A program made the position numbers and the translations under genes. A model generated the notes under the pieces. That model was not told where the DNA came from, searched no databases, and was given only the letters and a program-made list of their open reading frames with translations. Below, in pieces: positions 50,198-62,611 of a DNA stretch of 64,000 bases; the stretch's first letter is position 1; the number at the start of each line of letters is the position of its first letter. The stretch comes from Acidobacteriota bacterium (GTDB lineage Bacteria; Acidobacteriota; UBA6911; RPQK01; JAJDTT01), in assembly GCA_965209055.1 (NCBI GenBank), contig OZ242374.1:4832001-4896000 (forward strand). Direction: 5' to 3'.

Positions 50198-52447
50198 GTG
50201 CCTCAACCAAAGCATTACGCACACAGTGCGGAATCGGCTGCGCGAAACCGGTGGCACCCGCTGGCGAAGCATTTGGAAGACACGGCAGCGACCGCAAAAG
50301 AATTTCTCGCACCTGTGGTTGGAGGGGAATTCGGGTTCGCAGCCGGTCTACTACACGACCTTGGCAAGTACGCGCCGCGATTCCAGCGACGGCTCGACGG
50401 CGCAGGCCGTGTTGACCACGCCACGGCTGGCGCCAAAAAGGCGATCGGGCGTTACGGGGAGCTTCGCGGCAAAATGTTGGCATTCTGTATTGCCGGTCAT
50501 CATGCCGGCCTCGCCAACGGTGTGAATGGCCACAAAATCTCCGCCCTGGCAGACCGGCTCCAGAAGCAGGTTCCACGACTCGACCCGGTGTGGAACGAGG
50601 AGATCACATTTCCAGACTTACCAATACCATCCCTTAAGGCGCGTGATCGGGACAGCGCGGCCTTTTCCGCCTCCTTCTTCATCCGCATGGTGTTCTCCGC
50701 TCTTGTGGACGCGGACTTCCTGGACACGGAGGCGTACTACAATGCGCTGGCAGGAACTTCGAAGGCACGCGGGCAGCACCCGGAACTGCGAGAGTTGTCC
50801 GGGCGTCTCGATACATATCTCCAAACGCTTGGGTTGAGCGCAGAGCCCAGTGACGTGAACAGGCTGCGTCAAGAGGTGCTGATTTACGCCCGGAAGCAGG
50901 CAGCAAAGCCACCGGGCCTGTTCACTCTGACCGTTCCCACGGGAGGCGGCAAGACGCTGACCTCCCTTTCCTTCGCCCTGGACCACGCCGCGCGCCACGG
51001 GCTTGCGCGGGTCATCTACGTAATCCCTTACATGAGCATCATCGAACAGACGGCCGCCGTGTTTCGCGAGGCGCTCCGCGACGGCCCGACCGGTGCAGCG
51101 GACTTCGTTGTCGAACATCACAGCACCTTCGAAGATTGGCCCTATAGTCGGGAGGCGAAGGAAAAGCTGTTCCTGGCGATGGAAAACTGGGACGCCCCCA
51201 TCATCGTCACCACGGCCGTACAATTCTTTGAGAGCCTGTTCGCAAACCGCCCCGCACGCTGCCGCAAGTTGCACAACATCGCAAACAGCGTCATTGTCCT
51301 GGACGAAGCACAGACCCTGCCCTTGAAATATCTGCGTCCCTGCGTTGCCGCCCTCGACGAGTTGGCCCGTAACTGGCACGCGAGTGTCGTGCTCTGCACG
51401 GCTACACAGCCAGCCCTGGCAGAAACCTCCGGCTTCCGTGGAGGCCTGGAGAACCTGCGCGAGTTGGCCCCCGAGCCTCAGCTTCTCTACCAAACCCTGA
51501 AGCGCACACAGATTCGTAGTGTGGGACGGCTGGGCGACGCCGTACTCGCAGAACGGTTGCGTGATTCGCCGCAAGTCCTGTGCATCGTTAACACTCGGCG
51601 CCACGCCCGCGAGCTGTACGAAGCGCTCGGGGACATCGAGAACACCTTTCATCTGACCACCCTGATGTGTGCACACCATCGAAGGGAGCGACTCGACAGA
51701 GTACGTGTGCTCCTGAAGGAGGGGGCACCGGTGCGATTAGTCGCTACATCTCTCATCGAGGCCGGGGTCGATGTGGACTTCCCTGTCGTCTGGCGAGCAG
51801 AAGCGGGGTTGGAGTCGATTATCCAAGCCGCCGGACGGTGTAACCGCGAAGGTCGAGTACCCCTCGCTGACGTGTTCGTGTTCGAGCCGGAAGAAGGGGA
51901 AGGGCGCAAGCCCCCACCAGAGATCTGCCAGTTCGCAGCAGCGGCGCGTAGCGTCCTGAGCCGCCACGACGATCCCATGTCCCTGACGTCCATCGACGAC
52001 TACTTCCGGGAACTCTACTGGAGCAAGGGCAAAGATGCACTCGACGCCAAACACATCCTTCGGCAGCTACGTGAGCGTCGAACAACCCTAGACTTCCCCT
52101 TTGAGACTATCGCCCGGGAGTTTCGGTTGATCGAGACAGCCATGGAACCAGTGATTGTCCCCTATCGTGGCGCCAACTGCGACGCCCCAACCGTCGATCG
52201 CCTCCTCGAAAATCTGAAGTGGGTCGAGCGCCCGGGCCACATCGCACGCCTGCTTCAGCCCTATGTCGTAAATGTCCCATCTTCGGCAAGGGTGTCGCTG
52301 CTACGCGCCGGCGCCGCGCGGATCGTCCGGGAAGCCGATTTTGGTATGCAGTTTGTAGTTTTGACCAATATCGACCTTTACCACGAGGAACTTGGCTTGA
52401 TTTGGGATGATCCCACGTTCCTTAAGTTGGAAAGTCTTCTCATGTGA
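50198..52447 (+). CDS. cas3: Cas3 HD nuclease-helicase (type I-C)
   Basis: HL..., LHDLGK, GHH, SALVDAD, PTGGGKT, DEAQ, IEAGVDVDF and QAAGRCNREG. Confidence 0.96.
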   Translation: MPQPKHYAHSAESAARNRWHPLAKHLEDTAATAKEFLAPVVGGEFGFAAGLLHDLGKYAPRFQRRLDGAGRVDHATAGAKKAIGRYGELRGKMLAFCIAGHHAGLANGVNGHKISALADRLQKQVPRLDPVWNEEITFPDLPIPSLKARDRDSAAFSASFFIRMVFSALVDADFLDTEAYYNALAGTSKARGQHPELRELSGRLDTYLQTLGLSAEPSDVNRLRQEVLIYARKQAAKPPGLFTLTVPTGGGKTLTSLSFALDHAARHGLARVIYVIPYMSIIEQTAAVFREALRDGPTGAADFVVEHHSTFEDWPYSREAKEKLFLAMENWDAPIIVTTAVQFFESLFANRPARCRKLHNIANSVIVLDEAQTLPLKYLRPCVAALDELARNWHASVVLCTATQPALAETSGFRGGLENLRELAPEPQLLYQTLKRTQIRSVGRLGDAVLAERLRDSPQVLCIVNTRRHARELYEALGDIENTFHLTTLMCAHHRRERLDRVRVLLKEGAPVRLVATSLIEAGVDVDFPVVWRAEAGLESIIQAAGRCNREGRVPLADVFVFEPEEGEGRKPPPEICQFAAAARSVLSRHDDPMSLTSIDDYFRELYWSKGKDALDAKHILRQLRERRTTLDFPFETIAREFRLIETAMEPVIVPYRGANCDAPTVDRLLENLKWVERPGHIARLLQPYVVNVPSSARVSLLRAGAARIVREADFGMQFVVLTNIDLYHEELGLIWDDPTFLKLESLLM

Positions 52448-52489
52448 ATACTCTACAATCTCGCACACATTAGGATGATTTTCTACTAC

Positions 52490-52518
52490 ATGCACGAAGA
52501 ACAAAAATATGCCATACT
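52490..52518 (+). promoter_or_regulatory. Putative promoter of the mini-array/hicA transcript
   Basis: ATGCAC (52490-95), 17 bp, CATACT (52513-18) with extended TGn; implied start site is near the first pseudo-repeat. Confidence 0.45.
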
Positions 52519-52525
52519 TCCGAGT

Positions 52526-52624
52526 GTCGTTGGCCGACGAGAGCCAACGCGGGTTGAAACGTGCAAGTGGTGCGTTTGGTCGCAACGAGTCGTCCCCGGC
52601 TGCTCCGGGGGCGCGGATTATCCG
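52526..52624 (+). CRISPR. Single-spacer mini-array with degenerate type I-C repeats (crRNA-like regulatory RNA candidate)
   Basis: GTCGTTGGCCGACGAGAGCCAACGCGGGTTGAAAC, then a 28-nt spacer, then GTCGTCCCCGGCTGCTCCGGGGGCGCGGATTATCCG. Both units keep the GTCG start, a hairpin and the CG-YGGRTT 3' part of the array repeat. Confidence 0.8.
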
Positions 52625-52672
52625 GTAGGACAACGAGGAAAGTGGATTTAGACCCAGCAGCCGGAATTTGCC

Positions 52673-52879
52673 GTGAAGGTTCGCGATGTCATACGCACGC
52701 TCAAGCAGCATGGGTTCCGATTGGACCGTCAATCCGGAAGCCACAGGCTGTTCGAAGGTGTGGCCGGCGGACGCCGCCGCATAGTGCCGGTACCCGGAAA
52801 GGATGGCGACGACGTTCGTGTAGGTACGTTGTCAGCAATCCGACGGCAATCCGGTCTGCCAAAGGCGCTGTTCCGCTAG
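52673..52879 (+). CDS. hicA: HicA-family mRNA interferase toxin
   Basis: KVRDVIRTLKQHGFRLDRQSGSHRLF...VPVP...GTLSAIRRQSGL. Confidence 0.9.
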   Translation: MKVRDVIRTLKQHGFRLDRQSGSHRLFEGVAGGRRRIVPVPGKDGDDVRVGTLSAIRRQSGLPKALFR

Positions 52880-53208
52880 GTAATCGCAGGAAGTTTATGG
52901 TGGAAGGAACGACCCTGAAAACAACCGGCCGCGCCTGGAACTCGAGACAACCACGTCATGAACGCGAGTTTTGCGCGAAGGTGCCATGGGGACTTGCGTG
53001 CCAAGAAATGGCTTTGTTCTTGGACCGGCAACTCGGCAACCCTCTCCAAGTAAAGTTCGATACAGACGGCGAGCGATTTCTTGACTTCGTCCAGAGACGG
53101 CGCGAACGTTGCGACATCCAAGTCGATGCAGATCGCTTCCCAATCATCACCGGAGGGGTACGCATAGCATTTGAGGTCAAGGGTCACATTCGACTCCCTG
53201 GGTTCCAT
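52876..53208 (-). CDS. HicB-like protein lacking an obvious DNA-binding domain, convergent with hicA
   Basis: YPSGDDWEAICIDLDVATFAPSLDEVKKSLAVCIELYLE matches the HicB N-terminal pattern. Alternative GTG start at 53187 after GGGAG. Confidence 0.65.
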   Translation of the reverse strand: MEPRESNVTLDLKCYAYPSGDDWEAICIDLDVATFAPSLDEVKKSLAVCIELYLERVAELPVQEQSHFLARKSPWHLRAKLAFMTWLSRVPGAAGCFQGRSFHHKLPAIT

Positions 53209-53294
53209 ATGGTAAAGGGAGGCATCTACCATCAAAATACCAAAGGATGGCACCATATGCACGGAGTCGCAGCCCACGACGCCGAGAGGACCTT

Positions 53295-53966
53295 ATGCCA
53301 TACGGAGTGAAGTTGCACATTTGGGGTGACTACGCCTGCTTCACGCGACCCGAAATGAAGGTTGAGCGGGTGTCGTACGACGTGATAACACCTTCCGCGG
53401 CGCGCGGGGTCGTCGAAGCGATTCATTGGAAACCGGCCATCCGCTGGATGATCGACCGCATCCACGTCTTAAAACCGATCCGCTTTGAGAACCTCCGCCG
53501 CAACGAGTTGGGTCGAAAGATTCCAGCAGGCAGTGTCCTTCGGGCGATGAAACAAGGCAAGACGGAGGGACTTTACACCCTGATTGAGGACAACCGCCAG
53601 CAGCGGGCCACGACCCTGTTGCGCGACGTGGCCTACGTTATCGAAGCGCACTTCGTCCTCACTGAGGCCGCGACGTCTTGCGACACCGCAGCCAAGCATC
53701 TGTCCATGTTTAACCGACGTGCTTCCAAGGGCCAGTGCTTTCACCGACCCTATCTCGGTACCCGTGAATTCGCCGCCAACTTCGCGCCAGTGGAGGGCAT
53801 GATGCCAAAGTCAACGCTGCCTACCACTCAACAGGATCTCGATTTGGGCTGGATGTTGTACGACATCGACTTTGAAGATGATCGGTCCCCCCGTTTTTTC
53901 CGCGCCAAGCTGCAAAATGGCGTGATGGACGTGCCGCCGCTGGACTCCGAGGAAGTCAGGGCGTGA
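53295..53966 (+). CDS. cas5c: Cas5c (Cas5d), type I-C
   Basis: WGDYACFTRPEMKVERVSYDVITPSAARG, RRNE, LRDVAY and PYLGTREF. Confidence 0.96.
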   Translation: MPYGVKLHIWGDYACFTRPEMKVERVSYDVITPSAARGVVEAIHWKPAIRWMIDRIHVLKPIRFENLRRNELGRKIPAGSVLRAMKQGKTEGLYTLIEDNRQQRATTLLRDVAYVIEAHFVLTEAATSCDTAAKHLSMFNRRASKGQCFHRPYLGTREFAANFAPVEGMMPKSTLPTTQQDLDLGWMLYDIDFEDDRSPRFFRAKLQNGVMDVPPLDSEEVRA

Positions 53967-55747
53967 GTATTCTTCAAGCTCTTGCCAGCCATTACAAACG
54001 CCTTCATGCAAATGGAGAAGCGCCAGATTACGGGTATTCCCGTGAGCCGGTTTCGTTTGCCATCGTGTTGTCGCCGGATGGTGAACCCGTCGATGTCATG
54101 GATTTGCGGGATCCATCAGGCAGGATGCCAAGGCCATCGCTCCGCGGGGTACCCCGACCCGTCACCCGCTCATCGAACATTGCCGCTAATTTCCTGTGGG
54201 ACAAGACCGCCTATACGCTCGGCATGAAGCGTGACCGCGACACGAAACAGCCGACGTCCGCAAGCCGCGAGCACGCTGCTTTCAGGAAGCTACACCAAGA
54301 ACTGCTCCCAGGGACAGGAGACGAGGGACTCAAAGCTCTACGCATCTTCTTGGAGCAATGGCAATCGGAGAATTACTCCAGCCTACGGCACGGAGACGAC
54401 ATGCTGGACGCGAACGTCATCTTTCGACTTGAGAGCGAACAGCGGTTCCTGCATCAGCGGCCAGCGGCACGAGGTATCTGGCAAGCCTATCTGGCAGGAA
54501 CAGACAAATCTCTAGGTCTCTGTCTTGTCTCAGGTGAGCAGGCACCGATCGAACGGCTTCACCCGAAGATCAAAGGCGTCAGAGGAGCGCAATCCTCTGG
54601 CGCGTCCATGGTCTCTTTCAACCTTGACGCCTTCGCATCGTTCGGCAAGAGGCAAGGCTCCAATGCCCCCGTGTCGAAACGAGCTGTCTTCTCCTATGCC
54701 ACCGCCCTGAACACGTTGCTGGCAAGGGACAGCGCGCGACGCATTCAGATCGGCGATGCGACGACGATCTTCTGGGCCGAGGCATCCGGCAACGAAGCGT
54801 GTGCCGCAACGGCGGAAGATTTGTTCTCGTTGCTTGCCGATCCGCCGACGGATGCGGAAGAAGCCATCAAGGTGGGAGACAAGCTCTTGGCGGTTGCGGA
54901 AGGTAAACCGCTGACCGCTGTCGAGCCAGAATTAGACGAGCACACAAGTTTCTACGTGCTTGGACTCGCTCCCAATGCGGCGCGCCTCTCGGTCCGTTTC
55001 TGGCATGTTGACAGCATCGGAGCGATTGCACGACAGATTGGCGAGCACTGGCGTGATCTGCTCATTGATCCGCTTCCCTGGACCACCCCGCCTGGCGCAT
55101 GGCGCCTGCTATACGAAACGGCCGTGCAGCGTAAATCTGAAAACATACCGCCAATCCTCGGTGGCGCGTTAATGCGTTCGATACTAACAGGTGGTCGTTA
55201 TCCCCGATCTCTACTTGCCGCCGTCGTGGCCCGAATGCGCGCCGAGGGAAACATCACGGCCCTCAGGGCAGCGATCTGTAAGGCATGTCTTGCCCGTGAC
55301 CACCGCCTGGGCTTCGAAATGGAGGATGTACCCGTGAGCCTGAACCCGGAAGAAACCAACCAAGCCTATCGCCTTGGAAGACTGTTTGCTTTGTACGAAG
55401 ACGTCCAACGTGCCGCCTTGGGCAATGTCAACTCGACGATCAAGGATCGCTATCTTGGGGCCGCTTCCGCCACCCCAGCATCGGTTTTCCCCTTGCTTGA
55501 GCGCAACTCCGCGAATCACCTTGCGACGCTCCGGAAAGGCAACAAAGGTGGTCTAGCCCATTGGTTTGAGCAACAGATCGACTCCATATTCGACGGTTTG
55601 GACGGGTCCTTTCCACGTAGTCTTCGTCTTGAGGATCAAGGACGTTTCGCGATCGGCTATCACCACCAGAGAGTCAAGAAACGAACCTCTTCAGACAAAG
55701 GAAGAGAAGGTACGGACGCCGAAACCCATGATGAGGAAGGACCATGA
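53963..55747 (+). CDS. cas8c: Cas8c/Csd1
   Basis: [46 protein letters not shown] and [11 protein letters not shown]. Confidence 0.95.
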
Positions 55748-56676
55748 ACCCGATCAAACACCGCTATGACTTCGTTTATCTGTTCGATGTCACCAACGGG
55801 AATCCGAACGGCGACCCGGACGCGGGTAACCTGCCACGTCTTGACCCGGAGACCAATCAGGGGCTGGTTTCGGATGTCTGTCTGAAGCGCAAGGTGCGTA
55901 ACTTCGTCGCCTTGACCAAGGAAGACGCACCGGGCCACGAGATCTATGTCACCGAGCGTGCCATTCTTGAACTGCAGCAAAAGCGCGCCTGGGAAGCGAT
56001 TATCCCTGAAGCCACAGCCAAAGATCGGGAAAAGCTCCCCAAGGACCAGCAGAAAGCCCGTGAGATCACACGGTGGATGTGCGCTAACTTCTTTGATGTC
56101 CGTACATTCGGTGCAGTCATGTCAACGAGGGGCGCCAACTGCGGTCAAGTGCGCGGTCCGGTCCAGTTCTCGTTCGCGCGTTCGATCGATCCGATTCTCC
56201 CTTTGGAGGTCTCCATTACACGGATGGCTGCGACCACCGAAGCCGACGCCGAGTCCAAAGGCGACATCCGCACGATGGGCCGTAAGCACATCGTCCCCTA
56301 TGGCTTGTACCGCGCTCACGGTTACGTATCCGCTTGTCTCGCCGGGGGTGCTAAGGGTACCGGCTTCTCCGAGGAAGATCTTGCACTAGTCTGGTTGGCT
56401 CTCGAACAAATGTTCGATCATGATCGATCTGCGGCCCGTGGCGAGATGGCAGCACGGAGGCTGGTCCTGTTCGAGCATGAAACCGCACTCGGCAATGCGG
56501 CCGCCCACCGGTTATTCGAGCGCGTCGCGGTCAAGCGAGCATTCGACGGTAGAGAATACGAGCCCGGCGCGCGCGATGCTCGCCATCTGCCGCCAGCACG
56601 GGCCTACACCGACTATGCGGTCCACATCGACGAGACGGATTTGCCGAACGGGATAAAGATCATAGACCGGATCTGA
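55744..56676 (+). CDS. cas7c: Cas7c/Csd2
   Basis: [44 protein letters not shown] and DRSAARG. Confidence 0.96.
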
Positions 56677-58850: not shown

Positions 58851-61800
58851 GTCGCCCCCTTACACGGGGGCGTGGATTGAAACTCTGATATCAGAAACAC
58901 TTGCCAGGGGGCCTCTGGTCGCCCCCTTACACGGGGGCGTGGATTGAAACACCCCCGCGACCGCAGGCGACTGGTTCCCGAGGACGTCGCCCCCTTACAC
59001 GGGGGCGTGGATTGAAACTGCGTAATCTCCCCACGGGTGACCATCTGGTCCAGGTCGCCCCCTTACACGGGGGCGTGGATTGAAACCCGAATCTCCTGGC
59101 GAGTCCACGGCCGGCGCGCGGGTCGCCCCCTTACACGGGGGCGTGGATTGAAACACCTTCTGATAGATCGGGTCCGGCGCTTCCTCGAGTCGCCCCCTTA
59201 CACGGGGGCGTGGATTGAAACCTGCAACCGGATCAAGGGGAACCGGGGCATGGAGGTCGCCCCCTTACACGGGGGCGTGGATTGAAACACTCTGATGCTG
59301 GTAACTCTCAACGTCGTGTGGGGTCGCCCCCTTACACGGGGGCGTGGATTGAAACCAGGTAGGGGCCTCGTGGACGGCCCAATCATTCGCGTCGCCCCCT
59401 TACACGGGGGCGTGGATTGAAACACTCTGATGCTGGTAACTCTCAACGTCGTGTGGGGTCGCCCCCTTACACGGGGGCGTGGATTGAAACCAGGTAGGGG
59501 CCTCGTGGACGGCCCAATCATTCGCGTCGCCCCCTTACACGGGGGCGTGGATTGAAACAAAACGGCGTCTCCGAGTCCATCTCAGGGCTCCAGTCGCCCC
59601 CTTACACGGGGGCGTGGATTGAAACCGGCTCGTTGTTCGAATAACGAACCCGGTATTTCGGGTCGCCCCCTTACACGGGGGCGTGGATTGAAACTTGACG
59701 AGTCTCAAAAGATTCTGGCGGTGCCTACGTCGCCCCCTTACACGGGGGCGTGGATTGAAACCAGGCCATGAGCAATGCTCTGCCGTCCGAGGTCACGTCG
59801 CCCCCTTACACGGGGGCGTGGATTGAAACACCGACGCAATACTCTGTTCCACCAGGCCCAGTCGTCGCCCCCTTACACGGGGGCGTGGATTGAAACCTAC
59901 GTTATGAAGTCCTTGGGACGGTGCCGGCTCGTCGCCCCCTTACACGGGGGCGTGGATTGAAACTTGATAAACTTGGCCAGGCCCTTCTGCGCCGCCGGTC
60001 GCCCCCTTACACGGGGGCGTGGATTGAAACTGGCATGCGCTTGATCGTCGCGGACTGACTGCCCGTCGCCCCCTTACACGGGGGCGTGGATTGAAACAAC
60101 ACGGAGGGAGCATGACCGACGACAAGCACCGGGTCGCCCCCTTACACGGGGGCGTGGATTGAAACCTTGCGCTCGGCGAAGCTCTGCCGGCGCTGCCGGC
60201 GTCGCCCCCTTACACGGGGGCGTGGATTGAAACCTCGTGTCTTCCATGGCGCTCCTCCTCTGATGCGGTCGCCCCCTTACACGGGGGCGTGGATTGAAAC
60301 AGGAACAATATCCCGACGTTGATTGCCGCTCCGATGTCGCCCCCTTACACGGGGGCGTGGATTGAAACCAAGAGGAGAACCGCACCATGACACCTACCCC
60401 ACGTCGCCCCCTTACACGGGGGCGTGGATTGAAACAAACTGGAACCGGCGTACTGGCGAGCCGTCGAGCGTCGCCCCCTTACACGGGGGCGTGGATTGAA
60501 ACGATCGTCACCGCGGAGCGTGGCCTCCGAGCCCCGTCGCCCCCTTACACGGGGGCGTGGATTGAAACTCGCCGACAACGCCGCCACCGATCCCGACGAC
60601 GGGTCGCCCCCTTACACGGGGGCGTGGATTGAAACTCCAAGACCACCAAAGATAAGGTTTGTTCGGCCCGTCGCCCCCTTACACGGGGGCGTGGATTGAA
60701 ACATTGGTAAATTGAACTGCATCCCGAATGGCCCCGGGTCGCCCCCTTACACGGGGGCGTGGATTGAAACTACCGATTAAACCCTACTGCCCAGGGTGAA
60801 ACTAGTCGCCCCCTTACACGGGGGCGTGGATTGAAACACGGTATTTGCAAATCCGTTCAAATTTGCCAGCAGTCGCCCCCTTACACGGGGGCGTGGATTG
60901 AAACCATGCGGGTGTTGATTGCTTTTTGGTCAACCTGAGTCGCCCCCTTACACGGGGGCGTGGATTGAAACCCAATAGGGCTTGATCAATACAAATGGGT
61001 GAAACGTCGCCCCCTTACACGGGGGCGTGGATTGAAACACCCATATTTCGCTTGGCGAGGCGTGGATTCACGTCGCCCCCTTACACGGGGGCGTGGATTG
61101 AAACTCTATATTGGGCTCTCTTCGTCTCTGATATTCTCGTCGCCCCCTTACACGGGGGCGTGGATTGAAACACCGGAACGGGCGGGATATCACTTCGGAA
61201 TTCACGTCGCCCCCTTACACGGGGGCGTGGATTGAAACCAAGCTCTCTGCAATGGACGGTTGATCGAGGTCAAGTCGCCCCCTTACACGGGGGCGTGGAT
61301 TGAAACCCACCACGCTTCCCGTCGCCACCCGGGAATCGGCGGTCGCCCCCTTACACGGGGGCGTGGATTGAAACTCGGTTGTAGTCTCGATACTTGGCCA
61401 CCCCTTTCAGGTCGCCCCCTTACACGGGGGCGTGGATTGAAACACCCAAAAGATGGCCACGCAGGCTGGATTCTACGGGTCGCCCCCTTACACGGGGGCG
61501 TGGATTGAAACTCTGGCAGCGCGAAGAACCCATTGGGCCGCGTCGTGTCGCCCCCTTACACGGGGGCGTGGATTGAAACTCCAAGGGGCTGACAGCATTG
61601 AAAGTCGCCCTCGTGTCGCCCCCTTACACGGGGGCGTGGATTGAAACACGGAACCCTGTTTCATTGTATGAAAGGATGTAGTCGCCCCCTTACACGGGGG
61701 CGTGGATTGAAACCAAGAAGGGGCATATACCGGGCCGCGTTTTGAAGGTCGCCCCCTTACACGGGGGCGTGGATTGAAACAAATGAACAGGTAGCGGACC

Positions 61801-62452
61801 AAGCAAGAATGATTGTCGCCCCCTTACACGGGGGCGTGGATTGAAACAATATAAGGGTCTAGTTCCTTGCCCGTTCCAACCGTCGCCCCCTTACACGGGG
61901 GCGTGGATTGAAACGACCCGGAGGCCGCACGTGCCTAGAACACCGAAAGTCGCCCCCTTACACGGGGGCGTGGATTGAAACCGCTAAGAACGTGAAGGGC
62001 CTCCACGAGGTCACGTCGCCCCCTTACACGGGGGCGTGGATTGAAACGTCGATCGCTGTCCGTCGCACACGGGCTGAGGAGGTCGCCCCCTTACACGGGG
62101 GCGTGGATTGAAACGATCGTCCGGCTGTCGTCGTCGTCGCGCAGCACGTGTCGCCCCCTTACACGGGGGCGTGGATTGAAACAATTACGGGATTTCAGAG
62201 CACACTGGTCGGGCCGCGTCGCCCCCTTACACGGGGGCGTGGATTGAAACCCACAGACTGGTCAGATGATGCCATCAGCCCGTCGTCGCCCCCTTACACG
62301 GGGGCGTGGATTGAAACCAGCAGGAGGACGAACCATAACTGATTCCTCCAAGTCGCCCCCTTACACGGGGGCGTGGATTGAAACACTCTATTCCCCGCCA
62401 GGTACGGCGGGTCGAGGAAGTCGCCCCCTTACACGGGGGCGTGGATTGAAAC
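58851..62452 (+). CRISPR. Type I-C CRISPR array, 54 repeats / 53 complete spacers (manual count)
   Basis: 33-nt repeat GTCGCCCCCTTACACGGGGGCGTGGATTGAAAC with spacers of about 33-36 nt. It is followed by a 15-nt truncated spacer and an IS end. Confidence 0.98.
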
Positions 62453-62611
62453 TACACTTTGCGGAGCTGTCAATGGCCGTTGAAAATTGCACACTCTTGG
62501 CCTTCGAAAATTGCACACTTTTGGCCACTGAAAATTGCACAGGTCGCGGGAGCCCCCGTGGCGGTCGCTACGCTCCCTTCACGGGGGCTCCCGCGGCCGG
62601 ACCTGGTCCCC

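Follow-up and report, generated by a model that had tools for sequence, protein, structure and literature searches.

A putative second target of a crRNA-like guide upstream of cas5c in an acidobacterial type I-C CRISPR-Cas locus

The cassette between cas3 and cas5c

The DNA analyzed here (the window) is a stretch of 64,000 nucleotides from an Acidobacteriota bacterium (assembly GCA_965209055.1, contig OZ242374.1, positions 4,832,001 to 4,896,000; host genome 6.08 Mb with 62.8% GC), which carries a type I-C CRISPR-Cas locus. Our subject is a short sequence in front of cas5c, designated site 2, which resembles the first part of the spacer of a degenerate mini-array in the same locus and overlies the predicted promoter of a hicB-like gene. 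The gap between cas3 and cas5c holds three elements, namely the mini-array, the toxin gene hicA and the convergent hicB-like gene. The upstream edge of this cassette is cas3, encoding the HD nuclease/helicase (50198-52447, plus strand; Pfam DEAD, Cas3-like_C_2 and Cas3_HD), and the first gene behind it is cas5c (53295-53966, plus strand; Pfam Cas_Cas5d, with TIGR01876 for the Cascade block).

The mini-array is intergenic and lies inside the cas operon, between the end of cas3 (52447) and hicA/cas5c. Two degenerate repeats on the plus strand, PsiR1 (52526-52560) and PsiR2 (52589-52625), enclose a mini-spacer of 28 nt (52561-52588, beginning with GTGCAAGTGGTGC). PsiR1 is predicted to form a hairpin of -11.7 kcal/mol, whose stem is unlike the repeat in sequence with the pairing retained, and its 11-nt handle CGGGTTGAAAC is identical to the repeat (TGGATTGAAAC) at 9/11 positions; the hairpin of PsiR2, the 3' handle, is stronger (-20.9 kcal/mol). 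Spacers of 28 nt homologous to the mini-spacer are present in three related loci (L010, L012 and L019). Judged by the two repeat-derived units, which keep their hairpins and the 5' handle, and by a promoter-proximal seed target that is flanked by a protospacer adjacent motif (PAM) and co-varies among relatives (site 1, see below), the mini-spacer is part of a genuine CRISPR RNA (crRNA)-like regulatory mini-array. The comparison with Rfam gave a single sub-threshold match (M23, 19.3 bits vs a cut-off of 41.2), inside hicA, and a stricter consensus scan for promoters and terminators returned 0 sites, without a sigma-70 call in 52300-53400.

The primary target of the guide, site 1 (52485-52498, minus strand), is located about 65 nt upstream of the guide and consists of the PAM TTC (52498-52496) and the protospacer GTGCATGTAGT (52495->52485). 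It has nine exact seed matches and one wobble, and nothing past position 11. Orthologous TTC sites exist in four relatives (L012, L014, L019 and L021), in each case on the strand opposite to the spacer and 58-70 nt upstream of it; the first 11 spacer nucleotides match there at 10/10 informative positions, and over 17 nt 13-14 of 15 informative positions agree. Spacer and site 1 change together, as CGTCG/CGTCG in L012 vs CGTTG/CGTTG in L019, with ATGCA... in L014 and L021. Site 1 of the window is the orthologue of these sites, but weaker. L016/L018 contains a degenerate repeat-like unit, and a target of the guide was not found there. In each of the five guide/site 1 combinations, from the four relatives and the window, position 6 is a mismatch (spacer/target A/C, C/A, A/C, G/A and A/T), for which the chance expectation is about 1 in 4; this position is described as unpaired in Cascade for type I-C guides (10.1101/2024.12.27.630466).

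Our own hexamer scan placed a putative promoter for the mini-array and hicA at 52491-52518 on the plus strand (TGCACG-16-CATACT with a TGn motif), with the -35 element under site 1. The closest relative, G006 (locus L010), has TGGACG-16-AATACT with TGn at the same place. A plus-strand -10 element, often with TGn, follows the PAM at a distance of 2-14 nt in the window, G006, L012, L014 and L021, and the protospacer lies over the -35; for this reason site 1 most plausibly sits on the plus-strand promoter driving mini-array and hicA and would act as its operator. Two other candidates in this region were rejected. A minus-strand promoter at site 1 (GTGCAT-17-TAATGT) is not conserved in the relatives, and the plus-strand promoter fits better. 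A mini open reading frame of 21 codons (ATG AGA AGA, 52443->52378, minus strand) runs antisense to the end of cas3, a little downstream of site 1, and its rare arginine codons are reminiscent of the RNA toxins CreT. It probably arose by chance, because G006 lacks the ATG and AGA AGA is the reverse of the Leu-Leu codons of cas3; an equivalent was not seen on reading L012.

The toxin gene hicA (52673-52879, plus strand, GTG start) encodes a protein with the GSH motif and a clear match to the HicA family (PF07927, E 1.5e-16, 60.7 bits vs a cut-off of 27), and both the MKVRD start and GSHR are conserved in the relatives. Its convergent neighbor of 110 codons (52876-53208, minus strand) overlaps hicA by 4 nt at the stop codons (52876-52879), and its product had no sequence match in Pfam, NCBIfam or the PDB. 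An AlphaFold (AF2) model built from 13 aligned homologues reached a mean predicted local distance difference test (pLDDT) value of 73.4, and the best Foldseek matches to it are N-terminal domains of HicB (6g1c, E 0.23, probability 0.97, template modeling scores of 0.51/0.64). HicB of B. pseudomallei occupies ranks 1, 2, 7, 8 and 10, with 0 of 181 matches at E<=0.001. The Foldseek matches span the HicB N-terminal domains only, and a DNA-binding domain is not recognizable in the model. Prediction of a complex between HicA and the HicB-like protein, with our own alignments as input, scored 0.54 vs 0.03 for the best control, with agreement between runs in at least 100% of contacts and a partner pLDDT of at least 62. 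The mark applied is reached by 58 of 80 solved complexes and by 2 of 110 mismatched pairs, and scores of 0.60 or less comprise 7 of the 80 solved complexes and both passing mismatches, so that the support is weak; since solved HicAB complexes exist, the pass may also reflect memory. In the relatives the gene is paired with hicA in the same convergent arrangement, except in L017, which has hicB only. On the basis of the weak fold evidence and this conserved pairing, hicB-like appears to be a reasonable name, although unproven.

Convergent hicA/hicB pairs also occur away from cas genes in other species of the genus (L005, L006 and L007), and the genome itself has, outside the cas locus, another hicB-like copy, which is shorter and accompanied by a partial hicA (L008, G000:C1:3534616-3537802). 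Because such copies occur without cas genes in the same genome and genus, the pair looks like a mobile module that was captured by the I-C operon.

Site 2 and the hicB promoter

Site 2 (53250-53265, minus strand), located between the divergent hicB-like and cas5c genes, consists of the PAM TCC (53265-53263) and the protospacer GTGCATATGGTGC (53262->53250). The match had been proposed in an earlier, sequence-only reading of the window, and renewed inspection gave the same alignment: positions 1-5 and 8-13 of the spacer are identical, position 6 differs (A/T), and at position 7 the guide has G against A, corresponding to an rG:dT wobble. All 11 informative positions can therefore pair with the guide, and past position 13 the similarity falls to background. 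Sites 1 and 2 differ from each other at positions 7 and 9 (G/A and A/G), and the guide has G at both, so it should be able to pair with either site (G:C or G:T). Site 2 is identical to the guide at 11/13 positions and to site 1 at 9/13.

The predicted hicB promoter extends from 53262 to 53234 on the minus strand, with the -35 GTGCAT (53262->53257), 17 nt, and the extended -10 TGgTATTTT (53242->53234; TGn = T53242 G53241), and site 2 overlies its -35 and spacer. In our own scan, GTGCAT-17-TATTTT is the best minus-strand hexamer pair of the hicB-cas5c interval. The assignment, already made in the sequence-only reading, is supported by the extended -10 TGnTAYTTT, which is kept in 4/4 close hicB loci (L001-L004), cas-linked or not. 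The same reading had pointed to a recurrence of TTTGGT 4 nt out of register, and this hexamer indeed occurs at spacer positions 15-20 and at site 2 positions 19-24 (53244->53239); it is part of the conserved extended -10 of hicB (TGGTA) and not extra pairing. On the other side, the PAM of site 2 is 30 nt from the cas5c start codon, as noted before; the ATG at 53295 is favored over an upstream ATG at 53247, as relatives share the start MPYGVKLH. The only plus-strand candidate for a cas5c promoter is TGGTAA-17-CAAAAT at 53210-53238, which would put site 2 at about +5 to +20.

Some further motifs were observed in this interval. CCATATG is found twice, at 53205-53211, where it spans the hicB start codon (as CCATATGG), and at 53253-53259 inside site 2 (minus strand GCATATGG), and the motif is a possible half-site of a protein operator. 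The motif TGGTAGAGT, or near variants of it, is conserved across phyla on the hicB strand of the hicB-cas5c intervals of L012, L014, L016, L019 and L021 and is probably the extended -10 of hicB in these loci. In the window, TGGTAGATG is located 9 nt downstream of TGGTATTTT.

To score matches, positions 6 and 12 were skipped and G:T pairs were counted, which follows known Cascade rules. Among the 12.15 M positions of the genome, 103 have an 11-nt seed that is fully paired with at most one wobble, and 33 (spacer included) are paired throughout the 11 informative positions of 1-13, again allowing a single wobble. Only five of the 103 seed sites carry TTC or TCC, and two of these five are site 1 (52498) and site 2 (53265), both within 710 nt of the spacer. 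Of random 13-mers of the genome tried as pseudo-guides, 5 of 20,000 reached the observed score within the 86 bp between hicB and cas5c (P = 2.5e-4). For the entire gap from cas3 to cas5c the proportion was 0.31% (P = 3.1e-3), or 0.02% with a TTC, TCC, CTC or TTT PAM; shuffled spacers gave the same figures for gap and interval. The score of the window spacer in its own interval, 10.5/11, has P = 2e-4 against shuffled spacers. The match at site 2 is unlikely to be due to chance, and the earlier view that two matches close to the spacer are suggestive holds in so far as the second match is statistically non-random. Two other counts carry less information. Long open frames cover the remaining TTC/TCC seed sites, but in a genome with 63% GC they also span the intergenic site 2, so this test does not discriminate. 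The pattern TYC-GTGCANRTRGT, proposed for a genome-wide count in the sequence-only reading, has three matches, two of them in the locus, vs about 1.0 expected; this figure is circular because the pattern was derived from the two sites.

Related loci and the origin of site 2

A Cas5c-based scan of species-representative genomes, in which 80 loci were kept, identified eight with hicB between cas3 and cas5c. Seven of the eight also have hicA in the same arrangement (L010, L012, L014, L016=L018, L019 and L021; the eighth is L017), and the cassette-bearing loci come from Acidobacteriota, Alpha- and Gammaproteobacteria and others. In the close relatives L011, L013, L020 and L022 the cas3-cas5c gap measures 167-224 bp and is free of cargo. 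The mini-array of L021 appears twice at 2595-2760, around an N run and low-complexity sequence, which is most likely a scaffolding artefact.

When the spacer of each of six related cassettes was compared with its own hicB-cas5c interval, a counterpart of site 2 was found in 0/6. The best scores were 7-8/11, with P values of 0.83, 0.50, 0.64, 0.84, 0.36 and 0.99 against shuffled spacers. Because it is absent from all six, site 2 lies outside the conserved design of the cassette. Overall, the interpretation given in the sequence-only reading is supported in part.

The closest relative, G006, shares 75% nucleotide identity over the cassette and lacks a good match at either site. In its cas5c (L010 3501-4172), codon 10 has changed from W to a TAA stop, and its cas3 (L010 415-2660) breaks into two reading frames near residue 231; the frames of hicA, hicB, cas8c and cas7c are uninterrupted. 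The type I-C system of G006 therefore looks inactivated, and with cas5c and cas3 broken its regulatory sites may drift, which makes it a poor test. The G006 spacer GTGCACATGGTCC pairs at 11/11 positions with site 2 of the window; with a single informative difference (position 7) behind it, this no more than hints that an earlier guide had A at position 7.

The sequence at the place of site 2 is GCC-ATGCAGGG... in G006 and the non-cas hicB loci; the non-cas loci L003 and L004 read (G)CC-AT(G/T)CAGGG... at the place of the -35, like G006. As G006 and the non-cas loci share this other sequence, the TCC-GTGCATATGG of the window is the derived state. Over the PAM and 13 nt the window and G006 differ at seven positions, of which five changes go toward the guide or PAM, one affects position 6 and one creates the wobble. 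Part of the match, TGCA, is inherited promoter sequence, because it is already present in the ancestral -35 of hicB.

DNA searches with the cassette in 41 relatives and 76 genomes of the order recovered a cas-linked cassette only in G006, and an intact relative closer than G006 was not found in these 41 + 76 genomes or in metagenome contigs. In a Cas5c scan of metagenomes, one of 80 loci has hicA/hicB (L092); this locus is truncated and without mini-array. In four metagenome runs one contig covers site 2 (53036-53274), with 0 differences from the window, and the contig of a relative with about 98% identity (run X7) ends at 53246, 4 nt short of site 2.

Possible regulation, rival explanations and known systems

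From the arrangement of repeats, guide and targets, the transcript would be trimmed by Cas5c to a guide that retains the 11-nt handle, the spacer and the hairpin of PsiR2. Once loaded with it, Cascade would sit on the -35 of the mini-array/hicA promoter at site 1 and repress both, without cleavage by Cas3, because only 11-13 nt can pair. That mini-array, site 1 and HicA form a type I-C example of the known CRISPR-repressed cargo is well supported by these sequence comparisons. In this genome the same guide may in addition pair over positions 1-13 with the TCC-flanked site 2 and occlude the -35 and spacer of the hicB promoter. We see an about even chance that site 2 is a lineage-specific second Cascade operator for the crRNA-like guide.

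The strength of such an operator would depend on its PAM. TCC, called the weaker PAM in the sequence-only reading, is documented as functional but weaker in type I-C systems (PMC5602111; 10.1101/2021.10.18.464778): according to PMC5602111, the order cited for B. halodurans is TTC > CTC > TCC > TTT, and in L. pneumophila TCC gives 95-99.5% protection vs >99.9% for TTC. Occupancy of site 2 should therefore be lower than that of the TTC site, and hicB would be damped in part, depending on Cascade. The Cascade operon might be damped too, as by CreR, provided that transcription of cas5c begins upstream of 53250. The guide pairs with the plus strand at site 2, which is the non-template strand for cas5c. 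In CRISPR interference with type I systems, targeting of the non-template strand represses best.

The dosage sensor of Cascade activity suggested in the sequence-only reading is something that we can only infer. In its more specific form, two operators of graded strength would constitute a sensor with two thresholds, recently evolved in one lineage from a cassette with one operator, and we regard this as a rather doubtful extension. The TTC site would shut off the transcript of guide and HicA, and the weaker TCC site would act on the hicB/cas5c control region. With falling levels of active Cascade the weak site would be vacated before the strong one, and HicB, possibly also Cascade, would rise; only deeper loss or inhibition of Cascade would clear the strong site and let HicA fire.

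Several points weigh against site 2 as an operator. The pairing is short (13 nt, one wobble) with a sub-optimal PAM, the scoring scheme was fixed after the match had been seen, the stricter consensus scan found no sigma-70-like promoter in the region, and a promoter for cas5c could not be placed. Site 2 has no counterpart in the six related cassettes, five of which have a cas5c without internal stop, and the ancestral -35 region of hicB (xTGCAG) already shared seed positions 2-5. Moreover, it is hard to see what an addiction or abortive circuit would gain from repressing the antitoxin along with its toxin. The main rival explanation is a fortuitous match: site 1 would be the sole functional target, and site 2 a drifted hicB -35 that is bound weakly or not at all. 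We take it seriously, at somewhat below an even chance. It agrees with the lack of site 2 in six of six cassettes and with the weak PAM and short, wobble-containing pairing. TGCA, which makes up four of the 11 informative positions, came with the ancestral -35 of hicB, and since about 8/11 is a usual interval score by chance, only 3-4 substitutions would have been needed at a site which was picked because it matches. The probabilities obtained above for the interval (2.5e-4), the whole gap (3.1e-3) and the gap with PAM (2e-4) speak against it, as does our own arithmetic, according to which, with TGCA given, the other seven positions pair with at most one wobble at a frequency of about 5e-4. 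It would also leave two of the five TTC/TCC seed sites of a 6.08-Mb genome within 710 nt of the spacer by accident.

Another explanation is that sites 1 and 2 share a motif (GTGCAT.T.GT) which is bound by a HicB-like protein or a sigma factor, and that the guide matches site 2 merely as a by-product of matching site 1; we consider this unlikely. Both sites have T at position 6, which is absent from the guide, both are followed 17 nt on by a -10-like minus-strand hexamer (TAATGT and TATTTT), both contain CATCCT, and CATATGG is found in site 2 (53254-53260) as well as at 53206-53212. However, site 2 agrees with the guide at 11/13 positions but with site 1 at only 9/13, and the site 1 sequences of the relatives, which equal their spacers, match nothing in the hicB-cas5c interval. 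Furthermore, the model of the HicB-like protein lacks a recognizable DNA-binding domain, and at site 1 it is the plus-strand promoter, not the minus-strand one, that is conserved. That site 2 is the relic of a duplication, left over from another mini-array unit or copied from the promoter at site 1, is very improbable despite the recurring TTTGGT and a loose resemblance between CGTGGGCTG and CGCGGGTTG upstream of the match, and a second mini-array or duplication was ruled out by the upstream flank, which is homologous to that of the non-cas hicB loci L003 and L004 and not to PsiR1, while TTTGGT belongs to the conserved extended -10 and the similarity of both sites stops after about 13 nt.

The circuit of mini-array, site 1 and HicA resembles several described systems. 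CRISPR-supervised systems of type I-C (CRISIS; 10.1101/2024.12.27.630466) have their cargo between cas3 and cas5c and silence it through crRNA-like RNAs from solitary repeat units, which leave positions 6 and 12 mismatched. The features in common are the position of the cargo, a repeat-derived guide with an 11-nt 5' handle, partial pairing with a TTC-flanked site in the cargo promoter including the mismatches at 6 and 12, and a target that precedes the inferred start by a few tens of bp; the window likewise has non-cas cargo between cas3 and cas5c and a target of the TTC/TTA-flanked kind before it. In contrast to CRISIS, where the unit stands after the cargo and before cas5c, the mini-array here stands before the cargo and probably shares a transcript with it, and a repeat-like unit between hicB and cas5c, the placement of the solitary repeat in CRISIS, was not found in the window. 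The cargo also differs, being a HicA/HicB-like pair, and for the guide we propose a further site.

CreA of the Haloarcula hispanica I-B system and CreR of I-E/V-A systems (10.1101/2023.03.10.532045) are likewise encoded by a degenerate mini-CRISPR inside the cas operon, and limited complementarity leads to repression and not to cleavage. In these systems, one guide serves both toxin and effector cas genes with a target between divergent promoters: CreA of H. hispanica represses PcreT and Pcas8 through one site between them, whereas here two putative sites with different PAMs are present. CreTA has an RNA, CreT, as its toxin, whereas the toxin here, HicA, is a protein and has a protein partner; an effect on cas5c is only proposed, and the ATG-AGA-AGA mini-frame is not conserved.

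Mini-arrays are reported for 7% of I-C loci, and toxin-antitoxin (TA) cargo has been described mainly in type I-D (Shmakov et al., PMC10120712). The I-D loci described there have the order cas3, mini-array, TA cargo and first effector gene, predicted targets in the cargo promoter regions, and a cargo hotspot that is empty in relatives, as it is here in L011, L013, L020 and L022; the difference is the subtype, which is I-C in our case. Compared with HicAB systems of the type II TA class, the locus has a HicA with PF07927 and the GSH motif, a partner whose fold is nearest to HicB N-terminal domains, and such pairs away from cas genes in the same genus. It differs from them in that the genes are convergent and not co-directional in an operon, which also applies to the relatives, and in that the partner has neither a match to a HicB sequence family nor a recognizable DNA-binding domain. 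HicA or HicB occurs 0 times in the main text of PMC10120712, Hic 0 times in that of 10.1101/2024.12.27.630466 and HicA 0 times in that of 10.1101/2024.10.29.618823; a literature search including HicA had no paper containing HicA among the matches listed.

Guide RNAs that make Cascade a repressor of toxins, cas genes or neighboring defense systems are a recently recognized layer of CRISPR biology, and the combination of a mini-array with a HicA/HicB-like cassette in I-C loci of several phyla extends the known cargo to a classical type II TA family. Should site 2 be functional, nature would offer an example of a single guide acting at two operators of different PAM strength, which would show how such circuits can gain targets by a few point changes and how the PAM hierarchy could set thresholds. 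If site 2 is fortuitous, the locus would still be a clean and testable I-C example of a CRISPR-repressed toxin.

Downstream of cas5c the operon continues with cas8c (53963-55747, plus strand; Pfam Cas_Csd1) and cas7c (55744-56676, plus strand; Pfam Cas_Cas7), and the main type I-C CRISPR array follows at 58851-62452 on the plus strand with >50 identical 33-nt repeats (GTCGCCCCCTTACACGGGGGCGTGGATTGAAAC). Within this array, 59256-59390 is exactly repeated as 59391-59525 (135 nt at 100%), corresponding to a duplication of two successive repeat-spacer pairs. Just past its distal end, at 62474-62545, three tandem units of 24 nt are located (TGGCCGTTGAAAATTGCACACTCT and variants).

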